Of a DNA stretch of 64,000 nucleotides, positions 16,893 through 64,000 are shown one piece after another (position 1 is the stretch's first letter; the number at the start of each line of letters is the position of its first letter). The stretch is from positions 114,514,001-114,578,000 of the forward strand of contig CM097886.1 of assembly GCA_044892525.1 (NCBI GenBank), read 5' to 3'. Source of the DNA: Schmidtea polychroa (Eukaryota). Made by a program: the position numbers and the translations under genes. The notes below the pieces were generated by a model. That model was not told where the DNA came from and made no database searches. It worked only from the letters and a program-made list of their open reading frames with translations.

Positions 16893-16959
16893 GATACATA
16901 CCAACATAAACCCGTTCTAACCACCATGATCTCAGTTAAGCAGAATATTGTGTTATGTT

Positions 16960-20300: not shown

Positions 20301-21190
20301 CAATTCTGGAACAAAAACTGCCACAAATGTTTTGACTCCTTCGACATTGATACTCCCCTAGAAACCATTATGTCCCATATCTCCAAAAATCATAAAAACC
20401 TTAAATTTGACATTAATCGTAAAATATATTGTTTCTGTGGAGAGTGGATAAACTACGCTGATACCAAAACTCATATAGAGAATAATCACCCCACCATTGG
20501 GAACAACAACTCTATTACTCCTAGCAACTCTTCTAAGGTAATTAACAATAATATAAATAATGTTTTTATAGACATTCTGGATACCCAGGAGGCAATCCTA
20601 TCTCCCCTAAATTATGAAATTACTGCCAGAGACTTACCTGATAATATTCTCTTCTCTAACAATATTGATAAGGAAGCTGCATGATGGTCACAGCATACAA
20701 TCAAGGCGTTCATATTCTCTTTTGCCATAAGACCTACTTCTATTTTCGTTGACCCCTATATAGGAAATGCCCTCATTCAGCACAACTTCAAAACCTTCTT
20801 CGAATCCTTTCCCTTTAAAGAATTTGCGGACTGGAATGAGATCATAATGCCAATGTGTCACTCCAAGGACAATTGGTTCTTCTTCTTTCTTGACAAGCGA
20901 CGTAATCTCGCACTTCTTATTGACCCTATCACTGATGAATGTCCCTCTACCTATCAAACACTTGCTAATAATATCCTGGAAACCATTCTCGACTTACAAA
21001 AAATTGTCTCTCCCTTAGACATCAAACTTCAATATCTTGAATACCCCAGATGCAGCTCTCCTTATGAATCAGCCTTCTTTGTATGCCATATGATTGAATG
21101 TTTGATGAAACATGATAGGATTACCTCCCCTAACATCCAGAATATGTCTGATAGGATAAAAAATATAATTAAAAAAATTATTAATAACAG
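17329..21190 (+). mobile_element. Second, divergent NeSL-like non-LTR element N2, 3'-truncated (no RT)
   Basis: ORFs 18852-19502, 19752-20684 and 20847 onward are all in one frame. The zinc fingers (CFCGEWINYADTKTHIENNH) and Ulp1-like domain (FESFPFKEFADW...KRRNLALLIDP...YPRC) align with N1. It ends at ~21190 against LTR-element sequence. Confidence 0.82.
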
Positions 21191-21751
21191 TCGTCTAATT
21201 TCTTCCCTTTTCCTTTCTAGGTTCCTTTTTAGTTCAATTTGTAGAAAATCTTGTTCGTTTCCTTGTTGGTGACTTTGTTGTTGCTGTTGTTGATTTCTTC
21301 CTTCTATCTCCCGGTATTTGCGAATCCACTTCTCCATCTCTTCACTGTCTCGTTGTTTTTCCTTTAATTGGTAGTTTAATTTGTTTATGGTCACTTGGCG
21401 TTCTTCCGCCTCGGTTTTCCAGTAGTCCTCAATTACCTCCTCTGCTTTAATACTTGCCCTTTCTTTCCATTATTCTCCCGCTATCTTTTCCCAGTTTTTT
21501 TCTCGCTTCCTTTGTTCATGAAGCCATTCGTTTTCTTCTTCTATATCTCTTTTTACTTCCCCCAACGTTTTACACTCTTTCTTTAACACCTTTATCATTC
21601 TTCAGTCTTCCAGGTATTTGTTTATTAATCTCCCATTCTCGCGCTTCTCTTCCCCTAACTCCTCTTTTAGCGTTTGTGTTTTTGTTGTTTCTGCTTCGAT
21701 TTCTCCTTCTTCTACGTCACTCGTGATTTCTATTATTTCCTCGATCTTCAT
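21190..21751 (-). pseudogene. Accessory coiled-coil ORF of copy 1 (internal stop, truncated by N2)
   Basis: MKIEEIIEIT... is an E/K/R-rich frame continuing through a stop at 21602 into the 21394 ORF. It is preceded by attatag|atATG. Confidence 0.6.
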
Positions 21752-21934
21752 ATCTATAATATGTACAATTAATGGTGCGCTATAATGCGACTTATACGTA
21801 TACATTTATATAAAGTTTGATAGTTTGGGTTAGAGTCCCTTAATTACTTTTAATTTACTCCTTATTTTTTTGTTTGGGATATAGGTCCCGATTTTATACA
21901 AAACATTTTTTGTCTTTTCGAACACAGCATTTAT

Positions 21935-22990
21935 TTATACGAATGTCTCCTCTTGCCCTACGTATCCCTCGTCGCTCTCTACCGACGACCGTAATTGGAT
22001 AGCGATAGGGTCGTATGGTACATAGTGTTGGGGGATTTGAGCCCTCAGCTCGTGAATTTCGTCTCTTAGAGCCCTTGAAATGTTTAGTTCCTCATCCAGT
22101 AAATAGGTGAGGTACCTTGTCTCTTCGTCTTTTACTTCTATTTGTCTGTCTAGGGCCTTGATTTTCTCGTTGCCCTTCCATTTTTCGATTTCTATTTCTA
22201 AATTTTTGATATTGTCACTGTACATTTTCCTTTCGACCTCCAATTTTTTGTTTTTTCCTGCTAGTACCATATTTCTCTGCTCCAGAGCTCCTTGATATCC
22301 ATTGATATCTCTTTCCATTTCTGCTACTTTATTTACTAGCTCCACAACTCTTCCAGACTGTTGGAGTATCATTTCCTCCATTTCCGCATTCTCGTGTTCT
22401 CTGATGTCGATTTTTATAGCCAAATGTCTTTCAAACTCCATGGCTTTTGTCTGCCAGGTTTGACTTCGAGCGGCAATTTTTCTTAATCGCTTTAGTTCCT
22501 CTTTTATGACTAAATTCTCTTCCCATTTACCTTGTTCGCTCTCGTATTGCAGTCTCATAGGCAAATCTTTCATTTCCTTTTTCATTTCTTTGTTTTGTCT
22601 TTTCCATTTTCTAGCTTCCGCTAATGTGTGGTTCATTTTCTTACCTTCTTTTTGTTTTTCTACTTCAAGTTTGGTGTTTTCGTCGGTGAGCCTCTTTCTT
22701 GCTTCTTGTATTAGCTGTTTTAGATAACGGCTGTGTGCTTCTTGGCGTGTATTTTCCAACGATGCCCATTTCGATGCTCTCTTGCATGCCTCAGCCTCCT
22801 CCCTCAAATTGTGTATCAGCCATCGATATTTACTATTCTCATCTTCCCTAGCTTCTTCGACGTGATTTCGGGTGAGGTTAATTAGTTGGAACATCACCTT
22901 GTTCCACTTGTCGCTATATTCTCTGGGAATTGGTGTTTTGGTTACATTAATTGGGGTCGTCGTTGTTCCGGTCATTTTTTCTTGTGTCAT
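21935..22990 (-). CDS. Accessory 351-aa long coiled-coil protein of copy 1
   Basis: Intact ORF, heptad-like E/K/R/L-rich, same purine-rich strand bias as the element. It is preceded by aatttag|aaATG and followed by AATAAA. Confidence 0.75.
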   Translation of the reverse strand: MTQEKMTGTTTTPINVTKTPIPREYSDKWNKVMFQLINLTRNHVEEAREDENSKYRWLIHNLREEAEACKRASKWASLENTRQEAHSRYLKQLIQEARKRLTDENTKLEVEKQKEGKKMNHTLAEARKWKRQNKEMKKEMKDLPMRLQYESEQGKWEENLVIKEELKRLRKIAARSQTWQTKAMEFERHLAIKIDIREHENAEMEEMILQQSGRVVELVNKVAEMERDINGYQGALEQRNMVLAGKNKKLEVERKMYSDNIKNLEIEIEKWKGNEKIKALDRQIEVKDEETRYLTYLLDEELNISRALRDEIHELRAQIPQHYVPYDPIAIQLRSSVESDEGYVGQEETFV

Positions 22991-23183
22991 TTCTAAATTA
23001 GAGATATTGATTAATTTTTATTTTGTTACGATTTTATTACTTAGTTACTGGTTTATCAGGAATTTTTCGCATTATTTTTGGGTTTTCGTGTTTAGGTTTT
23101 TACATACTAGTACCATGTATGATTTTATTGGTTATATATACCGATATATATATACATTTTATATACAATATTATCCACGCCGG

Positions 23184-24559
23184 CTACTCGGTTCTGCCTT
23201 TTCCCTCTCTTCTCACATTCATTTTTATATATATTGTGTCATTCCTGGCCATGACTTCCACCTTTTGTTGCAAGATGAACTTAGGCGCTCCCGTTGCTGC
23301 ACCTTCTTCTTCAAGTGGTCTTTGGTTGGCTAATTGGTTGCCCGTTGCCTTGAAACTTTGTTCGTGGATGCTTTGGTCATTCATTATTGCGATATCGATT
23401 TTCGCCTGAAATGGCCATTCTATTATTTCGTCGTGTTCCCCTTTACATACTAGGAAGAATACTGAGAAGTGTGTTCCCAATCCTATTCCATCTCCGTTGG
23501 GATATACCTTCATTTTCATTTTGTATCCGTTCTTCCAGGAGAGAAATGCGGGGCTGGTTATCCTAGTATCTTCTCCGATTTTTGCTTTTCGTATCTTTTC
23601 TTTCACTCCCGTAATTTTCCATATGTAGGGTGTGGTTGGAATTACTTCGTTTAGATTTATTTCGGTTACTTTTTGACGGAGCACCTTGGCTTTCCATTCG
23701 GTTTATTTGCTTTTTTATGTTTGCTCGAGCTTCCTCAAACGCTTCTCTTTCTTCTAGTAATTCCTTTACCAATGCTTTCAATGAGGTTGTTTCTATCCCC
23801 ATTTGTTGTACTTTCTCTTCGTTTTCTTGCAACGCAATTGACCACATTTCTGCGTGAGTTGATACGTTTTCGGTTAGGTGTTGTGGTAATTCCTCTCGAT
23901 GTAGTAGTTTCTGACAGCCCCATTTACCTAGTACGCATATCATTCTTTTCTTTTCACATTCTTTTAGGTGCTGGGCTATTTTTAGGGTTTCACCTTTGTT
24001 ACATCCATTCGGACATTCCCCGCAGAATTCCGCGCATATTTTTTTCCTCCTGTACGTTGTGGTGTTTGAGGGTTAGGTTTTTCCACGTATCTACTTCCCT
24101 GCAGTATTCGCATCTTTCTAACCTTTCTTCACATTGGCTTTGATGTTCTTTTTCTTCGCTAGCTCGTATTGTTTTATGGCACTTGCCGCACTGGCCGACT
24201 CTGTACATACATTCCCCCATATGTTGCTTTACCTTCCATATTGATCCTTTCCATTCGCTTGGGGTATTTTTACATCCCAGATTAGTATTTAGCATATCTT
24301 TTACTGCGGCCTTATCTTCATTTGTATCTTCTAAAGTTGATATCAGGGTCTCTTTACATTTTGGGCACCACTGTGGTCTGTTTTTTATCGTTTCTTTTAT
24401 ACATTCTTTGCATAATCTGCATCCGCATTGGGTTTGGTGGGGTTCTTTTAGCAACTTTTCACATATTCCACACATGACGTGTTTGTGTATTCTGATAGTT
24501 GTGGAATTTCTGACTAACTCGATGATCTCGTTAAATTCCTCTCTTCGTTGTCTATCCAT
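23184..24559 (-). pseudogene. Intronless TRAF homologue carried by the retroelement (RING, TRAF zinc fingers, coiled coil, MATH); disrupted
   Basis: RING CGICEKLLKEPHQTQCGCRLCKEC...CPKC; zinc fingers HMGECMYRVGQCGKC and HQSQCEERLERCEYC; MATH SPAFLSWKNGYKMKMKVYPNGDG...GTHFSVFF...GEHD...EWPF. Split by stops near 23999 and a frameshift near 23670. No introns are needed to join the pieces. Confidence 0.9.
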
Positions 24560-24643
24560 ATCTACAATTAGGTACATATAGTCTTTATCGCTACAGATTC
24601 GATATTTTATTTACAGTTATTTACATTGTAATTTAGGTTTTGT

Positions 24644-25003
24644 TTATGGTTCGGAAGAGTCGGCCTCCTGTCCGCCCTCCTCTCTACTCATTAACCATTC
24701 TGACCAGTCTTCCATTTCTGCCTGTTCTGCTTCCTCCACCATTCTTTCCAATTCGATTTCCTGTCTTCGGCTATATTGGGTTATCCTCTCTATCTCTCTT
24801 TGCATTTGTTCGATTTTTACCCTCTGGTCCTCGATTATTTTTAGATAACTAAATTCTTTGTTCAAACTGTCGATAAAGTTCCTTTGCATCGTCAGTCCTT
24901 GCTCTTGTAAATTAGATACTAATTGTGCTAATACTGAGCATTGTTGTTTCCACATGTCTTCGGTAGCTGTGAGGTGGTTTATTTCGTGGTTTCTTTGCTC
25001 CAT
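24644..25003 (-). CDS. Accessory 119-aa coiled-coil ORF
   Basis: Intact ORF, Q/E-rich amphipathic pattern, located in the accessory cluster. Confidence 0.55.
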   Translation of the reverse strand: MEQRNHEINHLTATEDMWKQQCSVLAQLVSNLQEQGLTMQRNFIDSLNKEFSYLKIIEDQRVKIEQMQREIERITQYSRRQEIELERMVEEAEQAEMEDWSEWLMSREEGGQEADSSEP

Positions 25004-25165
25004 TCTTAATTTATATGTACTTTCTCAATCCTTATCCAATTTTAATTTCATATTATTTACACCCATCGTTATATAATATTGATACCGCGCTTATATAAAG
25101 ATATAATACTGTTATATACATAAACTATACTTACTTTTTACATTTATATACAGTCATAACCCTTT

Positions 25166-25522
25166 CTATTTCTGTGGATTTGGAGGGCGCTGGGCATTCC
25201 AGGCCTCCACCCACTGTTCTTGTTTGATATTATTCGGTCGTTTTACCCGATGTCGAAAATTTCTGATTCGGGTCATTTCCAATTCTCCGCGATGTCGTCT
25301 ATCTTTGATTATTTTTATTGTTCCCCCCGTTATGATTAAAAGTGCCCCTGTTATTATTATCCCACTGATCCACATCATCTGTTTTATGCTTATAATTTCT
25401 GGTTTTTCTTTGTTTGTTATTGTTGATATTGTCTCCGTACTTTCCTCGTTTCCTCTTTTGTCTTTTCTTTTCATCATCTCACGTATCCTTGTTATCTCCT
25501 CGTCCATACCCTCCTTGGCCAT
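25166..25522 (-). CDS. Accessory 118-aa single-pass membrane protein
   Basis: Hydrophobic stretch MMWISGIIITGALLIITGGTI followed by basic KIIKDRRHR. Confidence 0.55.
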   Translation of the reverse strand: MAKEGMDEEITRIREMMKRKDKRGNEESTETISTITNKEKPEIISIKQMMWISGIIITGALLIITGGTIKIIKDRRHRGELEMTRIRNFRHRVKRPNNIKQEQWVEAWNAQRPPNPQK

Positions 25523-25951
25523 TTTTTAAATTTTTTCCATTTCTTCCGCTGACACGTAATTGTCCTGGTTTTTCTCATTGGTTCTCTTACGCTTTTCTTC
25601 CTCATCTTTTTCATCGTTAAATTTTCTTTTCTTCCCTCTTTTTCCCGGTTATCGTCGACATTCCCTTTTTGATTCGTTCCTCCAGATACAAACCGTGTAT
25701 TCCTTTGGGGGTTGTTGCTGTGTTACATATTGTAAACAGTCTTCACCCGGTCTTAATCTTGAAATACAGACTTTGTGTTCTTTTCTTGGTTGGAGTTGTG
25801 TTATCACTACCTCCCCTCCTTTTTCTAGGTGTACCTCTTTCCCTTTAACTGTTGTGTTCTCTTCCCGTTTCGCTGTCGGTATGCCTCCTGTATTCTTACT
25901 TCCGTTATTGGTTCCGTATCCTCGTTTATCAATACTTGTTTCTGATATGCT

Positions 25952-28900
25952 CTAGACATACATCTTCCTAGGATGCACCTTTCTTTTAGATCCCACTCCT
26001 CTTTTAAATCCCACTGCTCTATCTATTATCTGCCTTGACATATAGATGCCTGCGTAGTTAGTCTTGGATACTATACTATCGCATTTGGTGGTTTCTTTCT
26101 CCTTGATAAATCTCATACCTAGGTCCGGATCGTCGGTGATTAGTGCCGTTGGTGTTTTTTGCGTTGAGAGTCTCTTTTCTCTGGGCGATGGTGGCACTGG
26201 TTTTCCATTTCTCATTCGTACTTTTCCATTTCCATCCTCGTCATCTTCGTTCTCATAAATTTCTCCCTTTACTTCATTAAACAAAGCACTTTTTAACAGC
26301 TGGAGTCGGCATTTTTGAGTGTTAGCTTCATATATTATGGTTGATACTCCCGTCTTGCATACGTTTTCCGTAGCTCTACACGCTGGGTTGGTTTTCATCT
26401 GATAATTATTGGCGTCAAATTGCGCTTCGTATTCTTTTAATTCAACCGTATAGGACTCGATTACTACCACTCCCGATATCACCTCGCCTCGGATTGTATA
26501 TGTACCTCCGTTGCACGATCCATCTGATGATTTTACTTTTCCGGATACATAAACACTTTCGGTTTTAATCATTCCGGTTTGTCCGTGTATTGTCACTCCG
26601 TTATGCATTTTCATCGCTCCGGTTCTAAAAAGCTCTTTACAGTCCTCTCTTTGTATTGGTACGATTTCTTAATCCAATCCGGGTAGTATGAGAGTCGAGT
26701 ACGAATATTGTCCACAATAATATGCGAGTACCTTTTTTGATACTACGCATTCCTTTGCTTGCGTTCTGATGAAATCTGATTCTTGATACACATGGTAGGT
26801 GACTTTTGTTTTTACTGTGTCCAATTTGTTGGGTGACGCCTGCCTACATTCTTCTATATCTCTCAATGAGTATTTATCTCTCATTACCATATTATCGCAA
26901 TCATAGATGGTGAAGCCCGTTGCTCCACTTGTGCATAGCATCCATATCATCATGGTCATCATTAGCGAATTTATTGATGCTTTTCTACTGGCTGGGTCTT
27001 TCATTGGTAATTCCCATTCAAGCTCGTTCAGCAACTTCTTCAATCTGACTTGCATTGACCTTTCCTGTTCGTTTTTTCGTGGTGCTTGTATGAGTCGTTT
27101 CCATCCTCCTGCTCGGATAATGTGTGGTTCAATAGTATTCTCTATGATTGCCACTGTCATTTCTACGTGGTTTGCAAATTGTTTATTGGGTATTTACCTC
27201 GCAGCTAATCCCATTAAATTGTACATTAAATAAGTTATTACCACTAGATGATGTTCGTCATCGTTTGCATTTGTTGTGAGCTGTTCAATCACTCTCTTCG
27301 TTTCATCCCAATCTGTTTTGGTGGTTTTGGTTTTCTCTTTGATTAGCTTTGGGATTATCCCTGATACGATGTGCCATAATTGTCTAGCTTCTACGCTGGC
27401 TACCTTTCGTTGCCACAAGCGTCTGAGTTGCGGGTTTGTTATTATTAACATATCTTTGATTAATTCTCGTATCCATTTTTCTCCTCTTTCGATCGTTGGT
27501 TGGGTTTCCTTTAGATCCCATACTATTTTGTCTAACTTTTCCAATCTGACTTGTCCTTGCTCTTGCTTTAGCTGTTCCTTAGTTTTGAACTCGGGCTTTT
27601 CTCCTTGTCTCTTAGGTCTTCCTTTTGCCCGTTTTTCCATCATTGTCCCCGCTTCTCTCGTATTCTCGTAATTCGGATTTCTTTCATTATCTGTTCTGGG
27701 CAATGAACTGTCGTTATTTCTCAGCCATTCATTCCATTCATCTATTATTTTATCGGTTTGTCCTTCTGGGGTTATTCTTGTCGATTCTTTTTGTTTCCTG
27801 AACTGTCCATCCGTTTCGGTTTCCGTAGTATCGTCGATGATTTCTTCGATGTTTAGTTTTGTTGGTTGTTGATAACTCGTTGATGGTTGGTTTGTAGTCC
27901 ACATTTCTGCTCCTGTCGGCCATCTTACTAATATCGGCGATCTTTCCCCTGGTTCATCGTTACTATCTTCTAGGATAATCTCTTCCACTCCTTCAGTTTC
28001 ATTGGATTTACTTAGTGCCTTGTTCGGGCTTGGAGTACTGAGACTACCTTTTGTTGGTCTATCATTTTTACTTTTCCTTTTTAACGGTTTTCCCAATGTT
28101 TCTGCCATGGTTAATACATTTGTCTCTTCCAACCTCATGGGTGTTATTCCAACGTCGGCATTATCGTCTAGTGATTTTCCTTGTAGTTGTAGATGGAATG
28201 GAGTTTCGTATGCTAATTTCTTTTTTAATTCCCTGATTTTGGTGGTTGGGTGTAATTCTACTTCCTCAACATTCTTATCTGGGTATTTGATTCGAATTCG
28301 ATATCTCTCTTGGGTGTCCTGTGACCATTCATGGTTACGCCACTTCCCGATGATTTGCTCCAGTTGTTCCGGGTACCATTCGTTGTATTGTCGGTATTCT
28401 TCTATAGTTTTTACTATCTCTCTCAAATAATGGATATTGTCCGATATTTTTAGAATGAAGTTGGCCAATGCTATCACTTGCCTTTTTTGGTTCTTTGTCC
28501 CCGTCTCTAAGATATCGCCTAGGTGTTTATATCTCTCTCTCTCTTCCCGATCTCTCGCCTCTTTCGCCTCTTCGCCGTCTATATCGGCGTATTCACGTTC
28601 CTTTTTTCTCATTGATTGAATATGTCTGGCTTCGTGTTCACTTTCTGACGTGACGTCTGTCTCGCTTTCTTCCTCTGATGTTTGTTCTATTACTTCTTCT
28701 TCATATTCTGGAGGTTCGTCTTCTTCCTCCTTTGGTTCTTCATCCATCTCCTCGATTTCTGTTTCTATGAGGATTCCCCTCTTAATTTCCCATACTTTAT
28801 TTTCCGCATTCCACGCCCTTTCCCATGGGGTTCGTCTGCAGGATCTGGTGCTTAACTTCGTTATTTTTCCTTGTAGTTCCTTTTCTCTTAACCATTTTTG

Positions 28901-35029: not shown

Positions 35030-35483
35030 GGCAGGGGAGATATCACAACAAAGGTAGATGGAGTCTTTGGACGTCATTATGAACGCTCACCGTGGCCTCC
35101 TACTTCTCCCATTCCGTATCGGCGAGTAACTCATCCAAATCAGAGAACTCGGAGGCGTTCTCCTCCCAGGTTACTCCGGTGGCTGAAATAACTCGTGCTG
35201 GGGGTCCGGTAGTTAGGTCTACGGTCGCGTGAGAATCGTTAATGCTAGTTGGATTTGGCAGGGGAGATATCACAACAAAGGTAGATGGAGTCTTTGGACG
35301 TCATTATGAACGCTCACCGTGGCCTCCTACTTCTCCCATTCCGTATCGGCGAGTAACTCGTCCAAATCAAAGAACTCGGAGGCGTTCTCCTCCCAGGTTA
35401 CTCCGGTTGCTGAAATAACTCGTGCTGGGGGTCCGGTAGTTAGGTCTACGGTCGCGTGAGAATCGTTAATGCTAGTTGGATTT
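35030..35483. repeat. 227-bp tandem duplication inside the 5' LTR
   Basis: 35030-35256 is repeated at 35257-35483. The 3' LTR has a single copy. It duplicates the 3' end of the LTR ORF. Confidence 0.93.
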
Positions 35484-38112: not shown

Positions 38113-38199
38113 ACTTACCTATGAAAATTTTGATTAAACAGTAATTTTAATGATTTTGGTGCCCGTTTATATAGTAAGTTCTTATTTGTGCGGACCAAT
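38113..38199 (-). promoter_or_regulatory. LTR promoter (inverted CCAAT, TATA) and first splice donor
   Basis: ATTGG at 38199-38195, TATATAAA at 38173-38166 and AG|GTAAGT at 38118, with the same order and similar spacing as in copy 2. Confidence 0.7.
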
Positions 38200-38519
38200 C
38201 AAAATTGAGTACCGCTTATTTTATTAAATTAATTTGCTTTTTTCCTATTTCTTTGGATATTTTACTTATTTTTCTATTTTTATTATATCTTTTATTTATT
38301 TCTTAAATTCCTTAATATTTATTGCATTTTACACTATTTCTCGTCATTCAATTGTCTTATTTAATTTTTTCTTATATTTTTTGTTTTAATTCTTATTTCC
38401 TAATTATTGTTTTTCTTATATCTTATTCTATTTTATTCTTATTTTGGTTTATTTTATTTTTATTTTTATTTAGTTATCCCTAACCTAATTTCCGAGGTGT
38501 TTTCCGATTCAGCCCAACA

Positions 38520-47969: not shown

Positions 47970-48300
47970 TGTTGGGCTGAATCGAAGGGTAGCTGGGAAA
48001 TTAGGTCGAATTTAACTAAAGTAAAAATAAGAAATAAAATAAATAGATTGACGAATAAAATAGAATAGAACATAAGAAAAACAATAATTAGAAATAAGAA
48101 TTAAAACAAAAAAATATATAAAAATAAGAAAAATTAAAATAGGACAATAGAATGACAGAAAATAACGCAAAATATAATAAATAATAAGGAAATTAAGGAA
48201 AATAAATAAAAACATAATTTTAATAAAGAAAATAAGAAGAAATAACTCTAAAACAAGGAAAATAAATTAAATTAATAAAATTAAGCGGTACTCAATTCTG

Positions 48301-48388
48301 ATTGGTCCGCGCAAACAAAAAATTAATATATAAGCAGGCATTAAAATCATAATAATTACAGTTAATCTAACCACCTCAATAGGTAAGT
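48301..48388 (+). promoter_or_regulatory. LTR promoter and splice donor
   Basis: ATTGG at 48301-48305, TATATAA at 48327-48333 and AG|GTAAGT at 48383. Confidence 0.7.
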
Positions 48389-50662
48389 AAAGTTTAAAAT
48401 AATCACAGTTAATCTAACCACCTCAATAGATCCATTCTACGACGAAACCGCAATTAAACAATCAATCCACAGCAACTCACGAGGACTATTCCGGAATCCA
48501 AGAAATTTCAGCTGAATCTAGATAATTTCGAACATTTATTACTTCGACACAGTACCCCTTTTCGACTCAGCCTATACCTCTATTAAACACTCGGTAAGGA
48601 TCTTTTGATTTCATAATTTGAATTTTAAAGTAATAGTTATGCATATGATTTAATTATAATTTTAATTTAAAGAACTTGTTTTCTTTTCGTTTGATTTCGA
48701 ATACTTGGTGTAATTTAACGATTTAGTATTTAACAATAAATGATTTGCTATGAATGATTGATTTCTAGGAATTATTGACTTTTATGAACTGTTTTAATGA
48801 GTTATTATTTAATGCCATTCAAATTTTCGAGAAACGTGGCGTTGATATACTCTAGTGTCATGGTGTGAGGTGCCTTCGGGAGCTCCACCGGTGGGCCTAG
48901 GGTATTTCAATCACGCAGCTGATTCGGGCCGTAATGTGGGGGCTTCCTCACGGGTCCGTCGCTGAAGGTGCGACTAAATCCTATAGGAAAATGTTGCCAG
49001 AAAATTGGTAGTCGTATAGCGATGGAAAATAGAGATGTAGGAAGAAACGTTCAGAGAGTTTTTATGTATTCGCGCAGTGATTGAGGGTGTCACACTATCG
49101 TCTCAAGATATCGTTTCTACTAAGCCCAAATTTCCTCTATCGCTCTAAAGCTCTATGTAGGTTGCTCATCGAGAGTCGTTCAAATGCTATAGGTGACATA
49201 TCTTCGATGCTCGTATGTTTCACTCGAAATTTATACCTACTATGTTTTATGGCCTTCCGTGTTATTATTTTCCTCGTCTACGTGTTCTCTCAAAGATGTA
49301 GCTGCAGGGGATTACAGAAAATAAGTAGTCTCGGATGAGCGTTAGAATTCCATGAACAAGTTGTCTCGCATAAAATTTTGAATTACGTAAAACGGGTTAC
49401 TTCAACTATTTTTGAATTGTATAAAATGATTTACTTCAATTGATTTTAGAATTATATAAAGGGATTAACTTCCACAAATTTTTCTAATTACATAAACCGG
49501 TTAGTGCCAAATAATCTCAAGAGTAAAACGAAATCAAATCGAGTCAAAAAATATATTTTTTTTTTACAAACCAATCTAACATGATAATCCTTACCTAGTA
49601 AATATAAATTACCCGTGTTTCATGGAGTTGATAATCCGGCGAGGATAGGTAGGAAATCTCCAAAATATCGGGAACGGATCAATAAACCGCATTTGAGGAG
49701 TTGAGAAGTTCCCCCTGGGGGGCAAATTATATCCAACTCTTGCGATACCGAGAATCATAATTTTTCCAGCATTTCCGTGAGAATTAGTATGACATCATCA
49801 TGAGCAAGGAAATGTGAGCATCTGTGCAGTGGGTTGATCGAGATAGTAGCCAGAGAACATGCCAGCATGTAAACAGTTGAGGGCACCAGTTAGTCATTAG
49901 GAGTGGAATTAAGTATGAGAAATAAAAACTTGCATACGTCACCCGTTTTCAGACACACTACAGTAGCTAATCACGGTGTGTAGATTCACACCGACTTGTA
50001 CTCATAACAAACCAGACCGGACGTGTCAGCTGGAATTTTTGGGTTATCAAATTAAATCACTCGCAGTCATTAGATTCCCACTGGTCGGAACTAATAGCCA
50101 ACTGTCAGACTGATTTTGTCTACTTAGTAGGATTAATTTAGTTATTATCTCATGTTGAATAATTTGTCGCCTATCATAAATAAATAATTAAAAATTTTTT
50201 TTTAATGTCTTCCCGTTCATCATAAATGAACTAATTAAGAATAATTTATGGATTTCTATTCACCCTAAATAATTAATCTAAAATTAATCGACCTACGTAC
50301 AGGATACATTCATCGAAACGATTTGTTAGGAAAAGTCGGCAATGTAATTCAACTCTCTTCAAACGTTAATTACTAACTTCAAGCAATTTAGATAACCGTA
50401 GTTTCCTCGACCTAGAATTCCTCTCACCAGTAGTAATACCTCTCCTTACTTGTGCAAAATCGTGCTAGACTGATTTATTTTCTTATAATTAATGACCCAA
50501 AGGGAACGAGGACCCATAGCGCAGTTGAATTTCTTTGGCTGATACACCCATTCTTGTCTATGAAACCAACTATGATCAGTAAAATATAAATGTGACCAGA
50601 CGACGACCTTCTAATTGATTTGATTTGTTGTTCATTTCCATCTTTTCTTGCAGTCACCCAAG

Positions 50663-51406
50663 ATGTTACCCAATTCCAAGACCATTCTCAGACCTTGTTT
50701 CTCTTGTTCAGACAAGAATTCAATCATCAAGGATCTGCAGGCCCAAATCGGAAAGTACAAGAGAAAAATAGACGAGTTAGAGGGGACATGGTTTAGTCCT
50801 ACCCAGATGAAAGAGGCTCAGAAGAAGCTGCACCGCAGCGAGCACTGTCGAGATGCGCTAATTTCCGAAAGTCGGGCGCAGAGAAGCCTAATAAAGGAGC
50901 AGTCGGAGGCGCTGCACAAGTTATACGTCCAAGCAGCAACCACTAGGAGAATCGCGAAGATCCCAATTAATGAAGCCAGTAATCTTTTTCCAGCGCACCA
51001 CGAGATCTCGGGCGGGCCTTCATCTCCACTTGGGAAGTCCTGCCATGGGTGCGTGGAGACCGAGCTCTCTCCCAGTGGTCCAGACGTTGTATTCACCGGA
51101 ACTAATAAAGTGCAGCCAAACACCGCATCGTCCTCAATCGTGCAAACCCCAACAGCTTCAAAACCTAAACGTCGGCAACTGTCGCGCGCCGAACGAAAAC
51201 GAAAGCAACGAGAGCGGGCTTCCATCAAACGGATTCTACCATCAACCGTCACCCCAGTCGACGGCAACAGCAATCCAATAGTAGTCGATCTAACGACCGG
51301 AATCTCAGGGCGAGTCATCTCCGCCGCCGGGGTAACATGGGAAGAAAACGCCGCCGAATTCTTTGATTTAAACGAGTTACTCGCCGACTCGGAGTGGGAA
51401 AAATGA
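50663..51406 (+). CDS. LTR-encoded 247-aa protein, copy 2
   Basis: Intact ORF after the acceptor tcttttcttgcag (50653), with AATAAA at 51543-51548. Homologous to 35327-36076. Confidence 0.82.
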   Translation: MLPNSKTILRPCFSCSDKNSIIKDLQAQIGKYKRKIDELEGTWFSPTQMKEAQKKLHRSEHCRDALISESRAQRSLIKEQSEALHKLYVQAATTRRIAKIPINEASNLFPAHHEISGGPSSPLGKSCHGCVETELSPSGPDVVFTGTNKVQPNTASSSIVQTPTASKPKRRQLSRAERKRKQRERASIKRILPSTVTPVDGNSNPIVVDLTTGISGRVISAAGVTWEENAAEFFDLNELLADSEWEK

Positions 51407-51974
51407 GAATTGCTCCGTAAACTGGCCTCATCTTCTAGAGATACCTGGACATCTTCTGACATCATTGTTTACCCTTGTGTTTTCCCTATTCTTAGGAATT
51501 TTGGTATATAAGTGTTCAATGTACTTGTATAATAATTCTGACAATAAACCATTCTCGTCTATATATGTGTTTTTGTTTATCTTAAAATAGTCGATCTGAA
51601 ATTGGTGAATAACATTGAGAGTCGTAGAAAATGAGGAGCATTAGTCAGTTGGCAACCCCAGCTAGGAACCTTGCGATGGGGTGATGGAATGATTAGACGT
51701 AAGTCCTTCTATCGGCAGTCAGGGTTGGGAAGTCGACGCCTCAGTAAGGAGTAGTCCGAAGGAGCTGGCTCACCTGCTTACTGGCGTCTCGCCGGCATAG
51801 CACAGTTCCAACGTGAAGCAATTCACGGGTGCTATGTTGGAATGTAGGTTATGTGCGGGTCCTGCTCGGCGATGACAAAACGAAGGACGAGCGAAATCGA
51901 TGTGGGCATTCATCCTCTAGACTGAAAGCTGCACTAAAAGGGGTCATCCGAGTAGCTACCCGCAACATAATTTT

Positions 51975-51992
51975 TGGGGGCTCAGCCGGGAT
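51975..51992 (+). promoter_or_regulatory. Primer binding site, tRNA-Pro type
   Basis: TGGGGGCTCAGCCGGGAT. Confidence 0.88.
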
Positions 51993-52300
51993 TTAGATTG
52001 AAATTTCCATTGACTAGTGCGAACTTGACTGGGATTTATTATTGAAATTTTGTCGAATAGTGTGAATTCACCGGGATTAGTGATTTTAATTGACTGGCGA
52101 ATGCAAATTGACTAATGCTTATCGAATCTTATTATAAAATCACGATTAGAAAATAATAAAATTAAAGATATAAATAAAGTAACTTTAATAATGGAGAAAT
52201 AAGATAAAAGTAAAATAAAGTATAACGATTTAAAAGGAAAATGTTTGATGAAACAACCACTAATTAGTTATGTATGACTAAAACATTTTTTTTAATAGAC

Positions 52301-52786
52301 ATGACGGAATTCGTGGACCAGATACAACAACTAATCAACTTCATAAACATCGAGAATGACTCCCTTAAAACGCTGACACAAAAGAGAGAAAGAATTAACA
52401 TCATACTACTCCAAGCAATCGGGCAAACCCCAGTCGTCCCCAACCACATGTTATTAGCCGCAGGACTAAGTCACCCAGATGGGAAGATAAACCCTGAAAC
52501 CGTGTATCAATGGTATCAAGAGAGATTGAACCACCCAGCATTAAATCTTGATTATCAACGTATAAAAGATCCATTAAGTACCATATCAGATACAATCGAG
52601 CGAAAAATACAAGAAAAACTGACCCTACTACGAACTTGTCTTGCTTGTAAACTTCGTCCTATTCGCGTACTGTTCTTGCCGTGTGGACACCTCAGTCACT
52701 GCGAAGAATGTGTGAACAACTTAAAACGATGCACGATATGTAAGAATGAGATAAAAGAAACTCATATGGTTTATTATGGTGAATGA
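52301..52786 (+). CDS. IAP/MDM2-type RING protein, copy 2
   Basis: Intact; CLACKLRPIRVLFLPCGHLSHCEEC...CTIC...HMVYYGE. Preceded by ttttaatag|acATG. Confidence 0.88.
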   Translation: MTEFVDQIQQLINFINIENDSLKTLTQKRERINIILLQAIGQTPVVPNHMLLAAGLSHPDGKINPETVYQWYQERLNHPALNLDYQRIKDPLSTISDTIERKIQEKLTLLRTCLACKLRPIRVLFLPCGHLSHCEECVNNLKRCTICKNEIKETHMVYYGE

Positions 52787-53649: not shown

Positions 53650-53974
53650 AGGCCTAGAAAAGCGAGAGATAGCAGTTAAGCTACAATGAGATAATATTTA
53701 AATTAATAGTGAAATGGAATATTAAAGCTAGCTAGAAACAAATTGAATGTAATTACGAAAATTTGAGTTTAGAGAGGAAATAAACGAGCTCGTGGAAAGG
53801 ATGATAGGATTATAATGAAAAAGGAAGGGGAAGAAGGAAATGAATTAAAGAGATAATGGAAAATAAAGAATAGGTGAAATGATGATAATGAGTAAAGAGG
53901 AAAGTAACTAACTAATTAAAGGGATCCCAGTGAAGTAGAGAAACTCTACGAAATATTTTTGTTTTTGGTTAAAT

Positions 53975-56900
53975 CGGGCGAACTAGCAAATAGGAAACAA
54001 AGAGCGAACGAATCGATAACATTATATGCCAGTGAATTACGAAGATTAGCGAAGAAAGCAATGAATGGGAAATTACTCGAGGAAAATCTGATCGGCTATT
54101 TCATAGAGGGATTACGCCGAGAGGATGTAAGAGCCTCAGTAGGTTGTCAAATGTGCAAAACGTTAGAGGAAGCCATAGACTGGGCTACAAGATGCGAGCT
54201 CCACCTTCCAGCTCAAATGAATATTATGCAAGAGGATGGGAGGATAGCGACAGCAATAGCGAAAGCGGATAACGGAGATAACAACAATCAGGAACCGAAA
54301 ATGAATCAATTTATACCAGGAGCGCATCAAATTTTCAAACCACCACAAGGACGATCAAATGGGAATAATGGTAATCGTAACAACTTGAATAATGAGAACA
54401 ATTTTAATAATCGACGAAATATGAACGATAACAAGCAGTGCCGAACATGTGGTAAACCAGGACACTGGGACAGAGATTGTTATAGAAACGCAAATTGTAA
54501 TCGTTGCGGACGGCGTGGACATACGGAAAATAGATGCCAGTTGAAAGGTTGTTTTAACTGTGGTCAGCCAGGTCACATCTCCAGAGACTGCCGAGAAAGG
54601 GGCCAACCACAACGACCACCACAACGAAATACTAATTACATGTCGAATCCGCAACGACAAAGTAACCCTAGTGAAGGAAAACAAATGAACGTTATGCAGG
54701 AAATCTCACAAATGAAACAGATGATGCAACAAATGATGAGACCAAGGCAAGAACCAGCACCACAACAAACCCAGAATATACGTATGATGAGGAGTACCGA
54801 AAATCTCAATAGTTATGAAGTACATCAACATGTACAAGAATGGCAAAGACTACAGGCCGAGGAAGAGAGGATAAAACAAGAACGCAACCAACAACGACAA
54901 GAACAACCATTGCGAATAAATATGATGAAGTTAGTAAAAGACATGAAAAGCCAGTACTGCTACAATTACGGGAAAAACCCAAGGGTAGTACCCATGACTG
55001 AACCAGAGAAGGTAAAAGAAACAACAACGGAAATGAAAACCGAGAATTCAACCACGATCTTAAAAGGGAACCAGAGAATTCAGAAAATATTCTGGAAAAA
55101 GATAAAAGATAAAATCGAAAAAGAACATAATAAAGCGAAAACCGAGACAGAAGATGAAAATAACAAGAGCAAGGAACAAGCCAGTCAACCAAACCGCCAA
55201 ATGTTACAAGAACTGGAATCTGAGGAAACAACGATATTCAAAAATAAAAAACTAAAGAGAGTACCTAGGATGAGAAATTTGCGAATCAACATGATGAAAA
55301 GGACGAAAGGTACGTCGTCCTCAGACGAAGACTATGTGAGCAGTTTGGGTGGAGAAATACTACAGCTAAATGAAATAAGCGAACCTCCAAAAGGGGAAAT
55401 CGAAGAAGAAGAAGGCGAAAGCGAGATAACCAGCGGAAGTGAAGACGAGGATATAGAAATAAAGTTGAGAAAAGAGAGGGAGGAAGCGATAAAACAAGTA
55501 GCTGAAATACTCCCAGTAGTAGTGAGGAACCAAGAGTTCATCGATATAATACCATTCAGACGATTCGTGCAAAAAGTGATGAAATTGGAAAGAAACGAGA
55601 AAGATTTAATACCAAACGAGAAAAAATCAATTATAAAAAAATATATGGAAAAAATGAAGCAGGCCGATACCACGCGGTATGTAATAAAAATCGGAACGAG
55701 TATAGGACTTGAAAGAATGTGGATTAAAAATACAGTCACCGACGAACTTTTCGATTGGATACGAGAACATTTGGGAAGTTCGAGAAAGAAAGAATATCTG
55801 TATCAATACCAAGGAGAACAGATCAAACCAGATATGCACTTAGTGGATGCACTAATATGGCCAGGAGAAACGCAAATACTGAAGTTGCACAAAGAAAAAC
55901 AACCAGCTAACCTGTACGATTGGGCTAAAGATGCCAAGGCGGAATATGATTTTAATATCAAATTGAAATTAGAACAAATAAAGCAATGTACTCTGAGACG
56001 AAACCTGGACAAGCTGATCAAACAAATTCAAGAACAAGTGGAAGACAACTGGGATTTACTCATCACCAGACGAGCCCCAGCCATGTACTAACTAATGAGC
56101 CGGTTGCGAGATACAGAATTGCTCCGAATGAGTGATTGGAGAACCATAAATTTGATTCCCAAATATGGAAGGTTAAAAGAAACCCAGCCGCAGAGGTTGG
56201 AAATAACCATATGGTTACCGAACGAAGAGAAACGACGAATAAAAATAAGCAATCAGAGTACAGTGGATGATTTGGTATCAAAGATAAACCAAGAGATAAC
56301 GGAAAAGGTACGTAGCGAAAGTAGTGATGGTATGGTGGATGATGTAGTCATGATGTACGATAAAATAATATTACGAGCGGAAGACGACACCTCGTTGAGC
56401 GAAATGGGTATGTGAGACGATCATCAGATAATCAGGATAGTACCAATGGATGAATTTCGAACAAGAGATGTAACGTATCAAAAAGAAATACGAGACCGGA
56501 TGAAAACGTTATATCAAAAATCTACAGAAATAATTGAAATTCACCAACGATGGTTAAAAGAAAAGGAACTACAAGGAAAAATCACGAAACTAAGCACCAG
56601 ATCCTGCAGACGAACCCCATGGGAAAGAGTGTGGAATACAGAAAATAAGGAATGGGAAATCCGGAAAGGAATCTTCGTAGAAACAGACATTGGGGAGACA
56701 GAAAGTGAATCGGAGGAAGAAGAAGAGGAACCCCCAGAATATGAAGAGGAAGCAAGGAGACAGATCTCAGATGATGAAAGCGAGACGGACGTCACGTCAG
56801 AAAGCGAAAATGAAGCGAGACATATTCATGCAATGCGGAAAAAGGAACGTGAATATGCCGATATGGACGGCGAGGAAGCGACAGAAGCAAGAGAACGAGA

Positions 56901-58528
56901 AGAGAAAGAAAGATATAAACACTTAGGCGATATCTTACAATGGGAGCGAAAAATCAAAAACGTCAGGTAGTAGCATTGGCTAATATCATCTTAAAGACAT
57001 CAGAAAATATCCACAATCTGAGAGAAATGGCGAAAGTAATAGAGGAATACCGGCAATATAATGAATGGTATCCAGAACAGCTAGAACAAATTATTCGAAA
57101 ATGGAGAAATCAAGAGTGGGCACAAGACACCCAGGAGAGGTATCACATCCGAATCAAGTATCCGGACAAGAGCATTGAAGAACTAGAAGTGCATCCAACA
57201 ACGAAAATTAGAGAATTAAAAAAGAAATTAGCATATGAAACTCCATTCCATCTGCAACTATTCGGAAAATCACTAGACGATAATGTAGACGTCGGAATAA
57301 CACCCATGAGATTAGAAGAGACTAATGTGTTAACAATGGCGGAAACGTTGGGAAAACCGTTGAAAAGGAAAAGCAAAATTAATAAACCAACAAAAGGTAG
57401 TTTGAGTACTCCAAGTCCAAACAAAGCCCCAAGTAAATCTAATGAAACTGAAGAAGTTGAAGAGATTATCCTCGAAGATAGTGGCGACGAACCAGGAGAA
57501 AGATCACCGCTATTAGTGAGATGGCCAACAGGAGCCGAAATATGGACCAACAACCAACCATCAACAAGTTATCAACAACCAACGAAACTGAACACCAAGG
57601 AAATCGTCGACAATACTACGGAAACCGAAACGGATGAACAATTCCAGAAGCAAAGAGAACCAACAAAAATAACACCGGAAGGTCAAACTGATAAAATAAT
57701 AGATGAGTGGAATGAGTGGCTGAGAAATAACGATAGCTCATTACCCAGAACGGATAACGAAAGAAATCCGAATTACGAAAATACCAGAGAAGCTGGAACG
57801 ATGATGGAAAAACGGGCAAAAGGAAGACCTAAGAAACAAGGAGAGAAATCTGAGTTCAAAACCAAGGAACAAGTAAAACAAGAACAAGGACAAGTTCGAT
57901 TGGAAAAGTTAGATAAAATAGTATGGGATCTAAAAGAAGCTCAACCAACGATCGAAAGAGGAGAAAAATGGATACGAGAATTGATCAAAGATATGTTAAT
58001 AATAACAAATCCACAACTTAGACGCTTGTGGCAACGGAAAGTAGCCAGTGTAGAAGCTAGACAATTATGGCACATCGTATCGGGGATAATCCCAAAGCTA
58101 ATCAAAGAAAAAACGAAAACTACCAAAACGGATTGGGATGAAACCAAGAGAGTGATTGTACAGCTCACGACAAATGCAAATGATGACGAACATCATCTAG
58201 TGGTAATCACTTATTTGATGTATAATTTGATGGGATTAGCTGCAAGGAAAATACCTAATAAACAGTTCGCAAATCACGTAGAAATGACCGTGTCAATCAT
58301 AGAAAACACTATTGAACCCCATATTATCCGTGCCGGAGGATGGAAAAGACTTATACAAACGCCACGAAAAAATGAGCAAGAAAGGTCGATGCAAGTTAGA
58401 TTGAAAAAGCTGTTAAATGAACTAGAATGGGAACTACCGATGAAAGATCCAGCAAGCAGAAAAGCATCAATAAATTCGTTAATGATGACTATGATGATAT
58501 GGATGTTGTGCACAAGTGGAGCAACGGG
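53975..58528 (+). pseudogene. Copy 2 Gag, CCHC x3, Ubl x3, Bcl-2-like region (Gag N-terminus deleted)
   Basis: Zinc knuckles at 54439-54591. Stops at 56089 and 56413 and a frameshift at ~56940. A deletion of roughly 1.3 kb relative to copy 1 lies at ~53975. Confidence 0.88.
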
Positions 58529-60345: not shown

Positions 60346-60839
60346 CAAAAGACATTCATCGGATAAAGCGATTGATCAAAATACTAACAAAGATTAAAGG
60401 AACCGACGAAGAAGTAGGCAGACGATTCCGGAAAGTAATGTACGATGAAGCAACAAGACGACAATTGAAAAAGAATAAGCCAAAATTTTTGGACCGATTC
60501 AGAAGTCAATCATCTAACAGCGATAGTGACGACGATGATAACGGGAACAATAAATGTCTATATCCAAACAGAAACCCAAACGAAAAACCAATGGAAACAG
60601 CACCGTATTGGGAAAAGGAAAAGACAAACACCTGGATCGCCAACGGAAGCTATATACCACCGGATATCGTGGGACCACAAGCCGCTTTGACCATGACACA
60701 GAATATGTATCCGCAATTACCGAGTCAACCCGGGATGCATTATATGCCAACACGACGTACCAAAAGTGTAGATCAAGCAGATGACGTAAGAACAATAGCA
60801 GAGATGAGTTTACCTGGAGGTCCAGCAGTAACAGTTATG

Positions 60840-63800
60840 ATTCAAATCAATGGTAAAGAAACCAATGCTATGATAGACACCGGAGCTAATGTATCAGCAA
60901 TAGCGATTAATCAAATTCCCAGTAAGCACTGGAAGGATATCGAATCAACAACAATCCACATCATAGCATGTAGTAAAGAAACAGTAGATGTGGTCGGAAG
61001 ATGGTGGACTACATTGAGATACCAGGACAACGAAATTGAAACGTATTTGGCAGTAATACCAAAACTTAGCGTACCAGGCATAATCGGAACGGATTTGATG
61101 CCAGAATTATTAAAAGAAGTGGTAATTGACTTAACAACCATGTGCCTAAAAGACAGAACAGGCAGAATATGCAAAATGAATGCCATAATCCGATGTCCAG
61201 AGAAAATTGTAGTACCAGCAAAATCGCAGATGATTTGTCAAATAAAAGTGGATACGGGTATGGAAGGAGAAGTTGTCTTCGAACCAAGTAAATCATTTGA
61301 AAAGCGACGAGAGTTACCCCTCGCCAGAGAAATAATAACAATAAACCCAGAAGGAGTGATACCGATCAACATCACAAATTTTGAAGAGGAAGACAAAATC
61401 ATCTATGAGAATGAAAAATTGGGAAGATTGACCCCAATGATGGACATAGAATTACCGAAAGTGACCAACGAGATGATCAAAGACGATGAATTATGGACAA
61501 TAGATAGTATGTTGTTGACGAATGATGAAAAGAAAAAATTGCACCGATTATTAGTAGAATATAAGGATATATTCGCCATCTCGGACCTAGATTTGGGTAC
61601 ATGTGATGTTACCCTGCATGCGATACCATTAATAGATGAAACTCCAATTGCGTTAAGACCATATAAACTAGCGGAAATGCAAAAAGGAATAGCTGAAGCA
61701 GAAGTACAAAAGATGTTAGACGCAAAAGTGATCGAACCAAGTTGCTCACCTTGGCAATTCCCAGTGGTCATGGTGAAAAAGAAAGATGGCACCCAACGAT
61801 TCTGTATCGATTATCGAAAGTTGAACGCAGTAACCAAGAGAGATACCTACCCATTGCCAATGAAATGTTACTCATGTTGCAAGGGGCAGCATATTTTACT
61901 TCTTTAGATTTAAAAAGTGGATACTGGCAAATTAAAGTCAAAGATGAGGACAAAGAGAAAACGGCTTTCACGTTGGGACGAGATCTATATCAGTTCAGAA
62001 AAATGCCATTCGGACTGACCAACGCACCAGCATCGTTTCAAAGGTGTATGAACTTTGTCACTCATGGAATCAAACAATGTATGGTATATATTGATGATTT
62101 GTTAATCTATTCAGCGACATTTGAACAACATCTGGAGGATATCCGAAATGTATTTATTCGATTACGACAATGGAAACTCAAGCTCAAACCGTCAAAATGC
62201 GACTGGTCAAAGGAAAAGGTCACGTTTTTGGGACACATAGTGTCAGCTAAAGGAAAGGAGCCAGATCCAAGAAACATTGAGAAAATAAAAACATGTCCAG
62301 CACCGAAAACTGTCACCCAAGTTCAGGAATTTCTAGGATTATGCGGATACTATCGCAAATTTATCAAAAATTATGCAGGAATTGCAAAACCAATCCAGGA
62401 ATTAGTAAAGAAAGACATTTCGTTCATTTGGGGGAAGGAACAACAAGAGGCGTTTGAAACGCTGAGAGACAAACTAATCGAAGCACCTATCCTCGTACAC
62501 CCAGATTTCAAGAAACCATTTCTATTAGCAACGGATGCAAGCGGGTACGCGGCAGGCGCGATTCTGGGACAATTAGACGACGAAGGTAAAGAAAGAGTAA
62601 TTGGATATTACAGTCGAACATTCAAAAAGCACGAGAAGAACTATTCGGTAACAGAACGAGAAGCATTGGCTATAATACAAGCAATCAAACATTTTCGATA
62701 TTTGTTATGGGGACATGAGATATGTATAACCACAGATCATCAACCATTAGTGTGGCTAGGGCAACATAAAGAAGCGTCCAGTAGACTAATGAGATGGGCA
62801 ATGCAGCTACAAGAGTATTCACCGTTCATAAAATTCAAAGCGGGAAGAGCGAATGCAAACGCCGACTGTATGTCAAGGTTTATTTTTCCAGATTTGGTAG
62901 ATCCAGAAATGCAACGTATATGCCTGATGGTAGCAGAAGACCTAGATTTCTGCCAATTACGAAAAGACCAACAAGAAGACGCAGAACTGAAACAAATTAT
63001 CGATTATGTAAAAACAGGAAAGACGGAGGTATATGCGAAAGACCAAAAATTAAAAGAACATATGGATAAACACCGACACCGATATATCATAGAGAAAGAT
63101 TGGTTGCTGATAATGGATGGGGAAAAACGATTAATGTGTATACCGGAAAACCGACGGAAAGAGTTACTAACGCAATACCACGATGGGAGATTGGGAGGAC
63201 ATATGTCATCAAAAAAGACGTTAGCAAGAATGAAACAAAAATATTTCTGGCCTACCCTAACGGAAGACGTAACCGAATGGGTGAAAAACTGCATAACCTG
63301 TGCAACAAGGAAAAACACTGGATCGAAATGGAAAGCACCTTTGACGCCAATGCCGGTACCAATAGAGCCGATGACAATGATATCAATGGATGTAGTTGGT
63401 CCATTGCCAGAATCGGATAAAGGAAACGTTTATATTTTAGTGATTACAGACTTTCTCACAAAATTTCCAGAAGCATTCGCGATGCCAGACCAAAAAGCTA
63501 AAACAATCGCAAAAATCTTGGTCGAAGAGATATGTTGCCGTTACGGGACACCGAAGCAAATCTTGACTGATCAAGGAACTAATTTTATGAGTGAAATAAT
63601 GAGTGAGGTAACCAATTACTTCAAAATCGCAAAATTGAGAACATCACCGTATCATCCTCAAACCAATGGGATGACGGAAAGATTTAATGGAACACTTATA
63701 CAAATGTTATCAAACTACGTCGACCGTCACCAACGAGATTGGGACGAATATATAAACCTATGTCTTATGGCGTACAGAATGTCGATTCACGCATCAACGA

Positions 63801-64000
63801 AAATGAGCCCATTCAAATTAATGTACGGAAGAGAATGTAACATGCCAATGGACCTGGAATACCAACCACCGATATCGCAATACATGGAGATAGATGATTA
63901 TGTTACGAAATTCAAGGAAAGAATGCAGGAGATTTGGGAAACTGCGGGATTAAACATCAAGTTCTACCAGGAAAGTTATAAAGATTTACACGATCGAAAG
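60840..64000 (+). CDS. pol: Pol: aspartic protease, RT, RNase H, integrase (one frameshift at ~61860; then open to the window end)
   Basis: MIDTGA (D at 60876); [14 protein letters not shown] and YIDD (62087-62098); TDAS (62534); HHCC (63179-63301); integrase D63389, D63569 and E63677 with D-35-E spacing. Gypsy domain order. Confidence 0.97.

Follow-up and report, generated by a model that had tools for sequence, protein, structure and literature searches.

The window analyzed here, a 64,000-nucleotide stretch of Schmidtea polychroa DNA, contains two inverted copies of one Burro-like retrotransposon (86% identity across 5.5 kb; copy 1 on the minus strand, copy 2 on the plus strand). Its polyprotein carries one clear and two probable ubiquitin-like domains (Ubl1 to Ubl3), which are devoid of a terminal di-glycine (di-Gly) and lie behind helical segments. 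On balance, they likely serve as adaptors or decoys directed at the host's ubiquitin/SUMO-dependent signaling. The presence of a Ubl in Burro was already known; what is added here is a unit made up of a helix bundle and a Ubl, the varying number of this unit, the missing Ile44, and possible protease sites flanking the units.

Position and integrity of the Ubl segments

A first-pass annotation, made from the sequence of the window, had placed three Ubls in each of the two copies, and translation reproduced its coordinates and the peptides quoted (Table 1). As it had also stated, the segments are conserved between the copies (68/72, 69/83, and 60/67 residues identical for Ubl1, Ubl2, and Ubl3, respectively). 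This conservation is not specific to the Ubls: dN/dS was 0.02–0.08 in the units (helical segment plus Ubl) and also low, 0.06–0.15, in the linkers (three of 20 loci, L032, L037, and L046, were dropped by the gap-free filter). The polyprotein is under purifying selection. In copy 2, the region is broken by two in-frame stops and a frameshift.

The annotation had assigned the segments to Gag, which is correct as far as the reading frame is concerned, yet loose: they begin ∼360 residues past the last zinc knuckle, and the frame goes on through Env and Pol. Because one frame leads from the nucleocapsid to Env and Pol, the segments belong to a cargo region between nucleocapsid and Env and not to Gag proper. 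The position upstream of the BCL2-like domain at which Burro has a Ubi2/SUMO-like motif is occupied by a ubiquitin-like domain here, as well.

Fold of the three domains

Ubl3 almost certainly adopts the ubiquitin fold, judging from its predicted structure. AlphaFold modeled unit 3 as three helices and a beta-grasp domain (predicted local distance difference test, pLDDT, 68.6). Foldseek returned SUMO1, ISG15, and ubiquitin for this model, and VIA aligned 70 residues with a best Z of 10.6 and an rmsd of 1.6 Å, tied among many ubiquitin-fold chains, to which identity was ∼20%. A profile of 21 unit rows matched ISG15 (E 5e-7), FAT10, NEDD8, Mdy2, and Rad23, and 14 of these 21 rows matched Pfam ubiquitin at E values up to 1. 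The Atlas search with Ubl3 (0.87) is taken as a lead only.

For Ubl2, the same fold is probable, and for Ubl1 it is only slightly less so. When the Ubl part of a profile made from seven units of related elements, with no sequence from the window included, was slid along the protein, Ubl3, Ubl2, and Ubl1 were the three highest of 17 peaks (21.2, 11.7, and 5.8 bits). In a separate shuffle test of the Ubls, 0 (Ubl3), 1 (Ubl2), and 48 (Ubl1) of 1,000 shuffles each did as well. The complete profile scored 32 bits on unit 3, compared with a shuffle maximum of 5.5. For the helix alone, the counts were 1 (helix 3, against the helix profile of the relatives), 43 (helix 2), and 341 (helix 1). With unit 3 included in the profile, the score of helix plus Ubl was reached by none of 1,000 shuffles for unit 2 and by eight for unit 1. 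The Pfam matches of the copy 1 segments, all of them below threshold, were ubiquitin for Ubl3 (E 0.0012), Rad60-SLD for Ubl1 (E 0.066), and, for Ubl2, the beta-grasp families UCH_UBL1 (E 0.044), PI3K_rbd, and UN_NPL4.

A helix bundle and a Ubl form a unit of varying number

To gather relatives of the element, the genome was searched with its Bcl-2 and Env families, and one protein search was added; this yielded four more families in the genome searched (G000) and three ENA polyproteins, with an Env identity of 35–40%. In the profile of these relatives, the conserved unit consists of a helical segment of ∼70 amino acids (aa) and the Ubl. A single unit was found in two families (L058–L067) as well as in P0004 and P0005, and two units in two further families (L069–L076) and in P0006, whose second unit is weak (10 bits). 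The number of units thus varies among families, being one, two or, in the element described here, probably three. Where several units exist, the one nearest the Bcl-2-like domain is best conserved; units 1 and 2 aligned with those of the two-unit relatives out of register.

Homolog searches with the Ubl region and with the unit profile (proteins of 274–2000 aa only) gave no match, a weak null because another search did find three unit-carrying polyproteins. In the literature, no description of a helix bundle ahead of a Ubl, or of three Ubls, was found; Grohme 2018 and Repbase may describe more. In P0004 and P0005, no Bcl-2-like domain could be seen by eye after the single unit; these related polyproteins have three stretches resembling aspartic proteases.

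Di-Gly and candidate cleavage sites

The annotation had noted that none of the Ubls ends in di-Gly and had regarded them on that basis as integral domains rather than conjugation units. Indeed, Gly-Gly occurs nowhere in the region corresponding to residues 441–1365 of the copy 1 frame in any of 18 copies, which argues against conjugation and against a cut by deubiquitinases. That the segments are integral, non-conjugatable ubiquitin-fold domains is therefore supported for Ubl3 and probable for Ubl1 and Ubl2.

The motif [IM][NRH][MAVI]M was found five times (0.34 expected), never inside a unit. Its sites fall into the linkers that follow the zinc knuckles, precede unit 1, and separate units 2 and 3, and four of the five were invariant in 14 copies (14 of 20 loci passed the filter).

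In a different, multi-copy retroelement family of the same genome, BEL/Pao-like with a DUF1759 Gag, two ubiquitin units were observed that are 79–95% identical to host ubiquitin and both end in Gly-Gly. They were in frame ahead of Gag in all seven loci checked (L108:4574-5878, L108 being G000:C1:15636000-15645999, and L109–L114). This ubiquitin is predicted to be a fusion of the cleavable type, unlike the Burro Ubls. No description of a BEL/Pao-like Gag with di-Gly ubiquitin was found in the literature.

Proposed function and its alternatives

In the preferred reading, in which the Ubls are adaptors or decoys, the element's own protease would free the Ubl segment from Gag, with the recurring I/M-x-x-M motifs as candidate sites; one product would carry units 1 and 2, another one unit 3 together with the Bcl-2-like domain. 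Because it lies upstream of the Env signal, the segment would stay in the cytosol. Units 1 and 2 may have arisen from tandem duplication of the unit and subsequent divergence. The partners would be E2/E3 enzymes (ubiquitin-conjugating enzymes and ubiquitin ligases) or SUMO-binding proteins in cell-death and immune signaling, which the RING, TRAF, Bcl-2-like, and ankyrin products of the element would address, too; a decoy, or docking of E3/E2 enzymes, would fit this other cargo. Burro-like elements rank with the most complex retroelements known, and no functional tests of their kit of apoptosis and ubiquitin modules were found in the literature. A defined repeat unit of variable number, together with the missing di-Gly and Ile44, offers small domains that can be expressed and narrows the hypotheses.

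Several results weigh against this reading. With dN/dS being low everywhere, the Ubls do not stand out as targets of selection. The unit 3 model depends on an alignment of relatives. When all three units were modeled together by AlphaFold, using 11 close copies, pLDDT was 33 and no confident model of Ubl1 or Ubl2 resulted, only a strand-strand-helix arrangement at all three Ubl places. The annotation's three beta-grasp domains are thus borne out by AlphaFold, Foldseek, and VIA for Ubl3 and unconfirmed by structure for the other two. Profiles of units 1 and 2 from their own family matched no ubiquitin-fold chain in the PDB; hhalign aligned unit 1 over 93 columns (P 0.007) and unit 2 over 47 columns, in its first half only (P 0.048), with probabilities of only 5.4% and 1.1%, respectively. 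The tree of units had long branches and did not resolve the placement of units 1–3. As to the protease sites, the shuffle test is inflated because the motif was picked by eye from the same sequences, and a looser form showed no enrichment there in the 3′ part (as many in 590/1000 shuffles).

Weaker, by our estimate, though not negligible, is the possibility that the ubiquitin fold is confined to Ubl3, with segments 1 and 2 being alpha/beta domains that are either unrelated or fully degenerate. The annotation had matched Ubl1 to ubiquitin by eye, a match that by itself does not exceed chance: in pairwise comparison with host ubiquitin, the score was reached by 632 (Ubl1), 377 (Ubl2), and 488 (Ubl3) of 1,000 shuffles, and comparisons to ubiquitin or among the three segments gave no significance either (137–797, and 41, of 1,000 shuffles). 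Together with helix 1 being at chance level and the missing PDB matches of segments 1 and 2, this would favor Ubl3 as the sole member of the fold. It does not explain, however, why the Ubls are the top three peaks with an independent profile, why so few shuffles reach the scores of units 1 and 2, why beta-grasp families are the best Pfam matches obtained with the segments of copy 1, or why tandem units are at the same place in related families.

The alternatives concerning function are all less probable than that. In one of them, the Ubls would be modules for docking to the proteasome, which the annotation had considered, or degron modules, of the Rad23/FAT10/midnolin kind; they would control how fast the element's proteins are turned over or deliver host proteins for proteasomal degradation. 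The matches do include the Ubls of FAT10, Rad23, Dsk2, Mdy2, and midnolin, and the units are bordered by long linkers of acidic, low-complexity sequence; SUMO, ISG15, and others, however, tie with these matches, which therefore indicate the fold only. The Ile44 hydrophobic patch is the usual surface for proteasome receptors, and proteasome shuttles with a Ubl (Rad23/Dsk2 type) carry it. Here, the Ile44 position is occupied by Gln in Ubl1 and Ubl3, cannot be aligned in Ubl2, and is Ile in only two of the 21 rows of the family alignment. The missing patch argues against classical docking by this surface, which leaves a proteasomal role unlikely. Equally doubtful is that the helix bundle is a domain of the TFIIS N-terminal type (TND) and that the targets of the unit are factors of transcription elongation or chromatin, bound either for targeting integration or for disabling them. 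A profile of 15 bundles aligned with 12 host TNDs over 61 columns (P 0.0017) with a score of 21.2, exceeding all of 100 column shuffles and a reversed control (15.2), and in 8/8 proteins a window overlapping a bundle was among the top three TND-profile peaks, when read by overlap. With a strict label, on the other hand, no unit peak was obtained in three of the eight proteins, and it ranked 9th and 11th in two more; the hhalign probability was 15.6%, scores did not exceed 8.7 bits, and in the profile control two Env windows reached 20.5 and 19.8, more than the 17.6 of the window with the bundle. Furthermore, Pfam Med26, the TND family, was matched by none of the 21 units and by no long frame of the genome, and a PDB sequence search with the bundle gave generic helical matches only, without a TND. 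The TFIIS-N-like identity of the bundle, a likeness first seen by eye, is therefore only a lead, and no paper connecting a TFIIS N-terminal domain with a retrotransposon integrase was found in the literature. Yet a little more doubtful is the full version of this idea, in which a TFIIS-N-type bundle plus Ubl would be cut out as a copy-number-variable adaptor gripping elongation or chromatin factors; if true, the unit would couple host factors to the ubiquitin/SUMO machinery or steer integration in the manner of a LEDGF-like tether.

That the Ubls are processing signals for host deubiquitinases is very improbable. Ubiquitin inserts of the pestivirus bovine viral diarrhea virus (BVDV) raise NS2-3 processing (PMC13517609), and the same genome holds the di-Gly ubiquitin fused to another Gag; against this stand the absence of Gly-Gly in the 18 copies and the low identity of the Burro Ubls to ubiquitin-fold chains. 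Adaptors or decoys in ubiquitin/SUMO-dependent signaling thus remain our preferred interpretation.

The host element

By its sequence, the element is a young, high-copy Burro-like Gypsy element with a single polyprotein of ∼4,700 aa. It is of the Ty3/gypsy type and ∼28.5 kb in size, with long terminal repeats (LTRs) of 4.0 kb that in copy 2 are 99.7% identical over 3,999 bases (5′ LTR in the window versus 3′ LTR in L098). Troyka (PMC12440569) was set aside, since the element here is bounded by TG...CA and flanked by a duplication of 4 bp. The polyprotein has the order Gag-[Ubl]-Bcl-2-like-Env-protease (PR)-reverse transcriptase (RT)-RNase H (RH)-integrase (IN)-ankyrin. Of 20 copies, 11 have a common frame that runs from capsid and knuckles through the three segments and the Bcl-2-like region to Env, protease, and RT; in four of the 20, it is free of stops. 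A query of the genome with Ubl3 gave 612 candidates, of which 150 were scored; open frames with a length of 4,732 aa contain ∼58 of these 150 matches, counted by eye. Downstream of the integrase, ankyrins in frame are followed by a TRAF-like open reading frame (ORF) and coiled-coil ORFs.

The Bcl-2-like region was called by searching the PDB with an eight-row family profile, which matched Bcl-2 and Bcl-xL (E 3e-4); copy 2 alone was below threshold. Hydropathy of Env peaked at the transmembrane helix, and the signal-like stretch was below threshold. This stretch follows the Bcl-2-like domain (58059-58538, plus strand, for the two together) and could double as a membrane anchor of the latter.

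Table 1. Features of the two element copies in the window.
Feature	Position	Strand	Evidence or remark
5′ LTR, copy 2	47970..51967	+	TG...CA, 4.0 kb; 3′ LTR outside the window; 4-bp target duplication GTAT
Primer-binding-site-like stretch	51975..51992	+	Sequence directly behind the LTR; presumably tRNA-Pro-like
Upstream accessory ORF with C-terminal RING finger (zf-C3HC4_3)	52268..52786 (copy 2); 33760-34278 (copy 1)	+; −	Pfam E 1.2e-11, 1.6e-11; RING presumably IAP-type
Gag capsid end and three CCHC zinc knuckles	53920..54594	+	Retrotrans_gag E 1.2e-11 (copy 1; weak in copy 2), zf-CCHC E 3.6e-10
Helical segment 1, ahead of Ubl1; weakest unit	55474..55674	+	Shuffle tests
Ubl1, probable ubiquitin fold	55675..55890 (copy 2); 29555-29770 (copy 1)	+; −	
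Helical segment 2, ahead of Ubl2	55951..56196	+	Shuffle tests; stop codon at 56089-56091 in copy 2
Ubl2, probable ubiquitin fold, long insert after helix	56197..56445 (copy 2); 29000-29248 (copy 1)	+; −	Stop at 56413-56415, inside Ubl2, in copy 2
Helix bundle 3, ahead of Ubl3	56910..57137	+	Three predicted helices, pLDDT 66-74; frameshift near 56950 in copy 2
Ubl3, predicted ubiquitin (beta-grasp) fold	57138..57338 (copy 2); 28106-28306 (copy 1)	+; −	
Bcl-2-like domain (BH1-BH2 region)	58059..58388	+	Family profile E 3e-4; copy 2 alone Pfam E 0.055
Signal-like stretch, class III fusion glycoprotein (Env), transmembrane helix	58470..60263	+	Monjiviricetes_fusion E 1.6e-26, 2.8e-19; frameshifted in copy 2
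Protease, RT, RNase H, integrase	60834..64000, runs past the window, then ankyrin repeats	+	RVP E 4e-10; RT/RH/IN/ankyrin from the homologous stretch L057
Copy 1 stop-free frame, 1,365 aa	27194..31291	−	Zinc knuckles, three units, start of Bcl-2-like domain
Copy 1 3′ part after internal deletion (mid-Env to near polyprotein end)	21188..26018	−	Matches other copies in their 3′ part at 81%
TRAF-like accessory gene of copy 1, broken	23184-24610	−	RING, zf-TRAF, MATH; coiled-coil ORFs also in 21188..26018

Two RING-type ligases would be encoded by the element if the upstream RING ORF is counted along with the TRAF-like ORF downstream. At the end of the polyprotein, just past the window (L051:3151-4992, plus strand), two further hydrophobic helices surround a Cys-containing segment, resembling a second membrane protein, with no Pfam match. 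An ORF of ∼260 aa is located inside the LTR (50624-51406, plus strand; 35327-36118, minus strand) and also in the LTRs of other copies; it gave weak coiled-coil matches only. The LTRs of copy 1 (3838-9787 and 34561-38519) are 97–99.6% identical. A non-LTR retrotransposon (RT and zf-RVT, 14268-16892) and other DNA occupy the interval (9889-21272) that separates the 3′ part of this copy from the 3′ LTR. Elsewhere in the genome, in addition to the matches in long frames, many near-identical Bcl-2 matches were observed whose frames are short and contain one internal TAG; they may belong to another mobile family that carries Bcl-2.

Comparison with known systems

The closest counterpart is Burro/GYPSM1 (Arkhipova & Yushenova 2019, PMC6431247), for which section 7 of that paper describes an ORF of 4,873 aa with a three-knuckle Gag, in-frame Env, ankyrins, and MATH, and a “Ubi2/SUMO-like (PF11976)” motif ahead of BCL-2; its authors suggest that the element meddles with apoptosis and ubiquitination. 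The element described here shares the single long frame (∼4,700 aa), the Gag with three CCHC knuckles, the Ubi2/SUMO-like region, the BCL2-like domain, an Env of the mononegavirus type, PR-RT-RH-IN, the ankyrins, TRAF/MATH cargo, and the giant size (∼28.5 kb here; over 30 kb for the largest Burro, PMC6431247). It differs in having up to three units, whereas that section names one motif and gives no count, and in the helix bundle ahead of each Ubl, which is not mentioned there. MATH is part of a full downstream TRAF-like ORF here; in PMC6431247, it is inside ORF1 or, in D. tigrina, upstream. The upstream RING ORF is a further difference. No Pfam match to a BIR domain was obtained in the stretches scanned, and the spacer of ∼220 aa between PR and RT, in the place of a dUTPase-like region, matched neither Pfam nor PDB; PMC6431247 had used HHpred.

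Gene order and Env type also correspond to those of the GAG-ENV-POL errantiviruses of Platyhelminthes with HSV/gB-type Env (Chary & Hayashi, PMC13524379). Among six Schmidtea Env rows of that paper, Smed_errantivirus_5 looks closest, about half of the positions being identical by eye. Schmidtea GAG-ENV-POL elements are listed there without treatment of cargo, and its main text contains neither “ubiquitin” nor “bcl”.

With regard to the Ubls themselves, the cytopathic BVDV inserts (PMC13517609) are likewise ubiquitin-related sequences within a viral polyprotein; they are recent host captures tied to processing, whereas the Burro Ubls are old and diverged and have no di-Gly. More similar are the integral (type II) Ubl/SUMO-like domains, such as those of Rad60 (SLD), Mdy2/Get5, and Rad23, which also combine a beta-grasp fold with the lack of di-Gly and are part of a larger protein. 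From these, the Ubls of the Burro-like element are set apart by the missing Ile44 patch, the pairing with a helix bundle, the retroelement as carrier, and, in the element's relatives, a conserved acidic L-D-D-D-E-Y-L-x-D-x-G loop.

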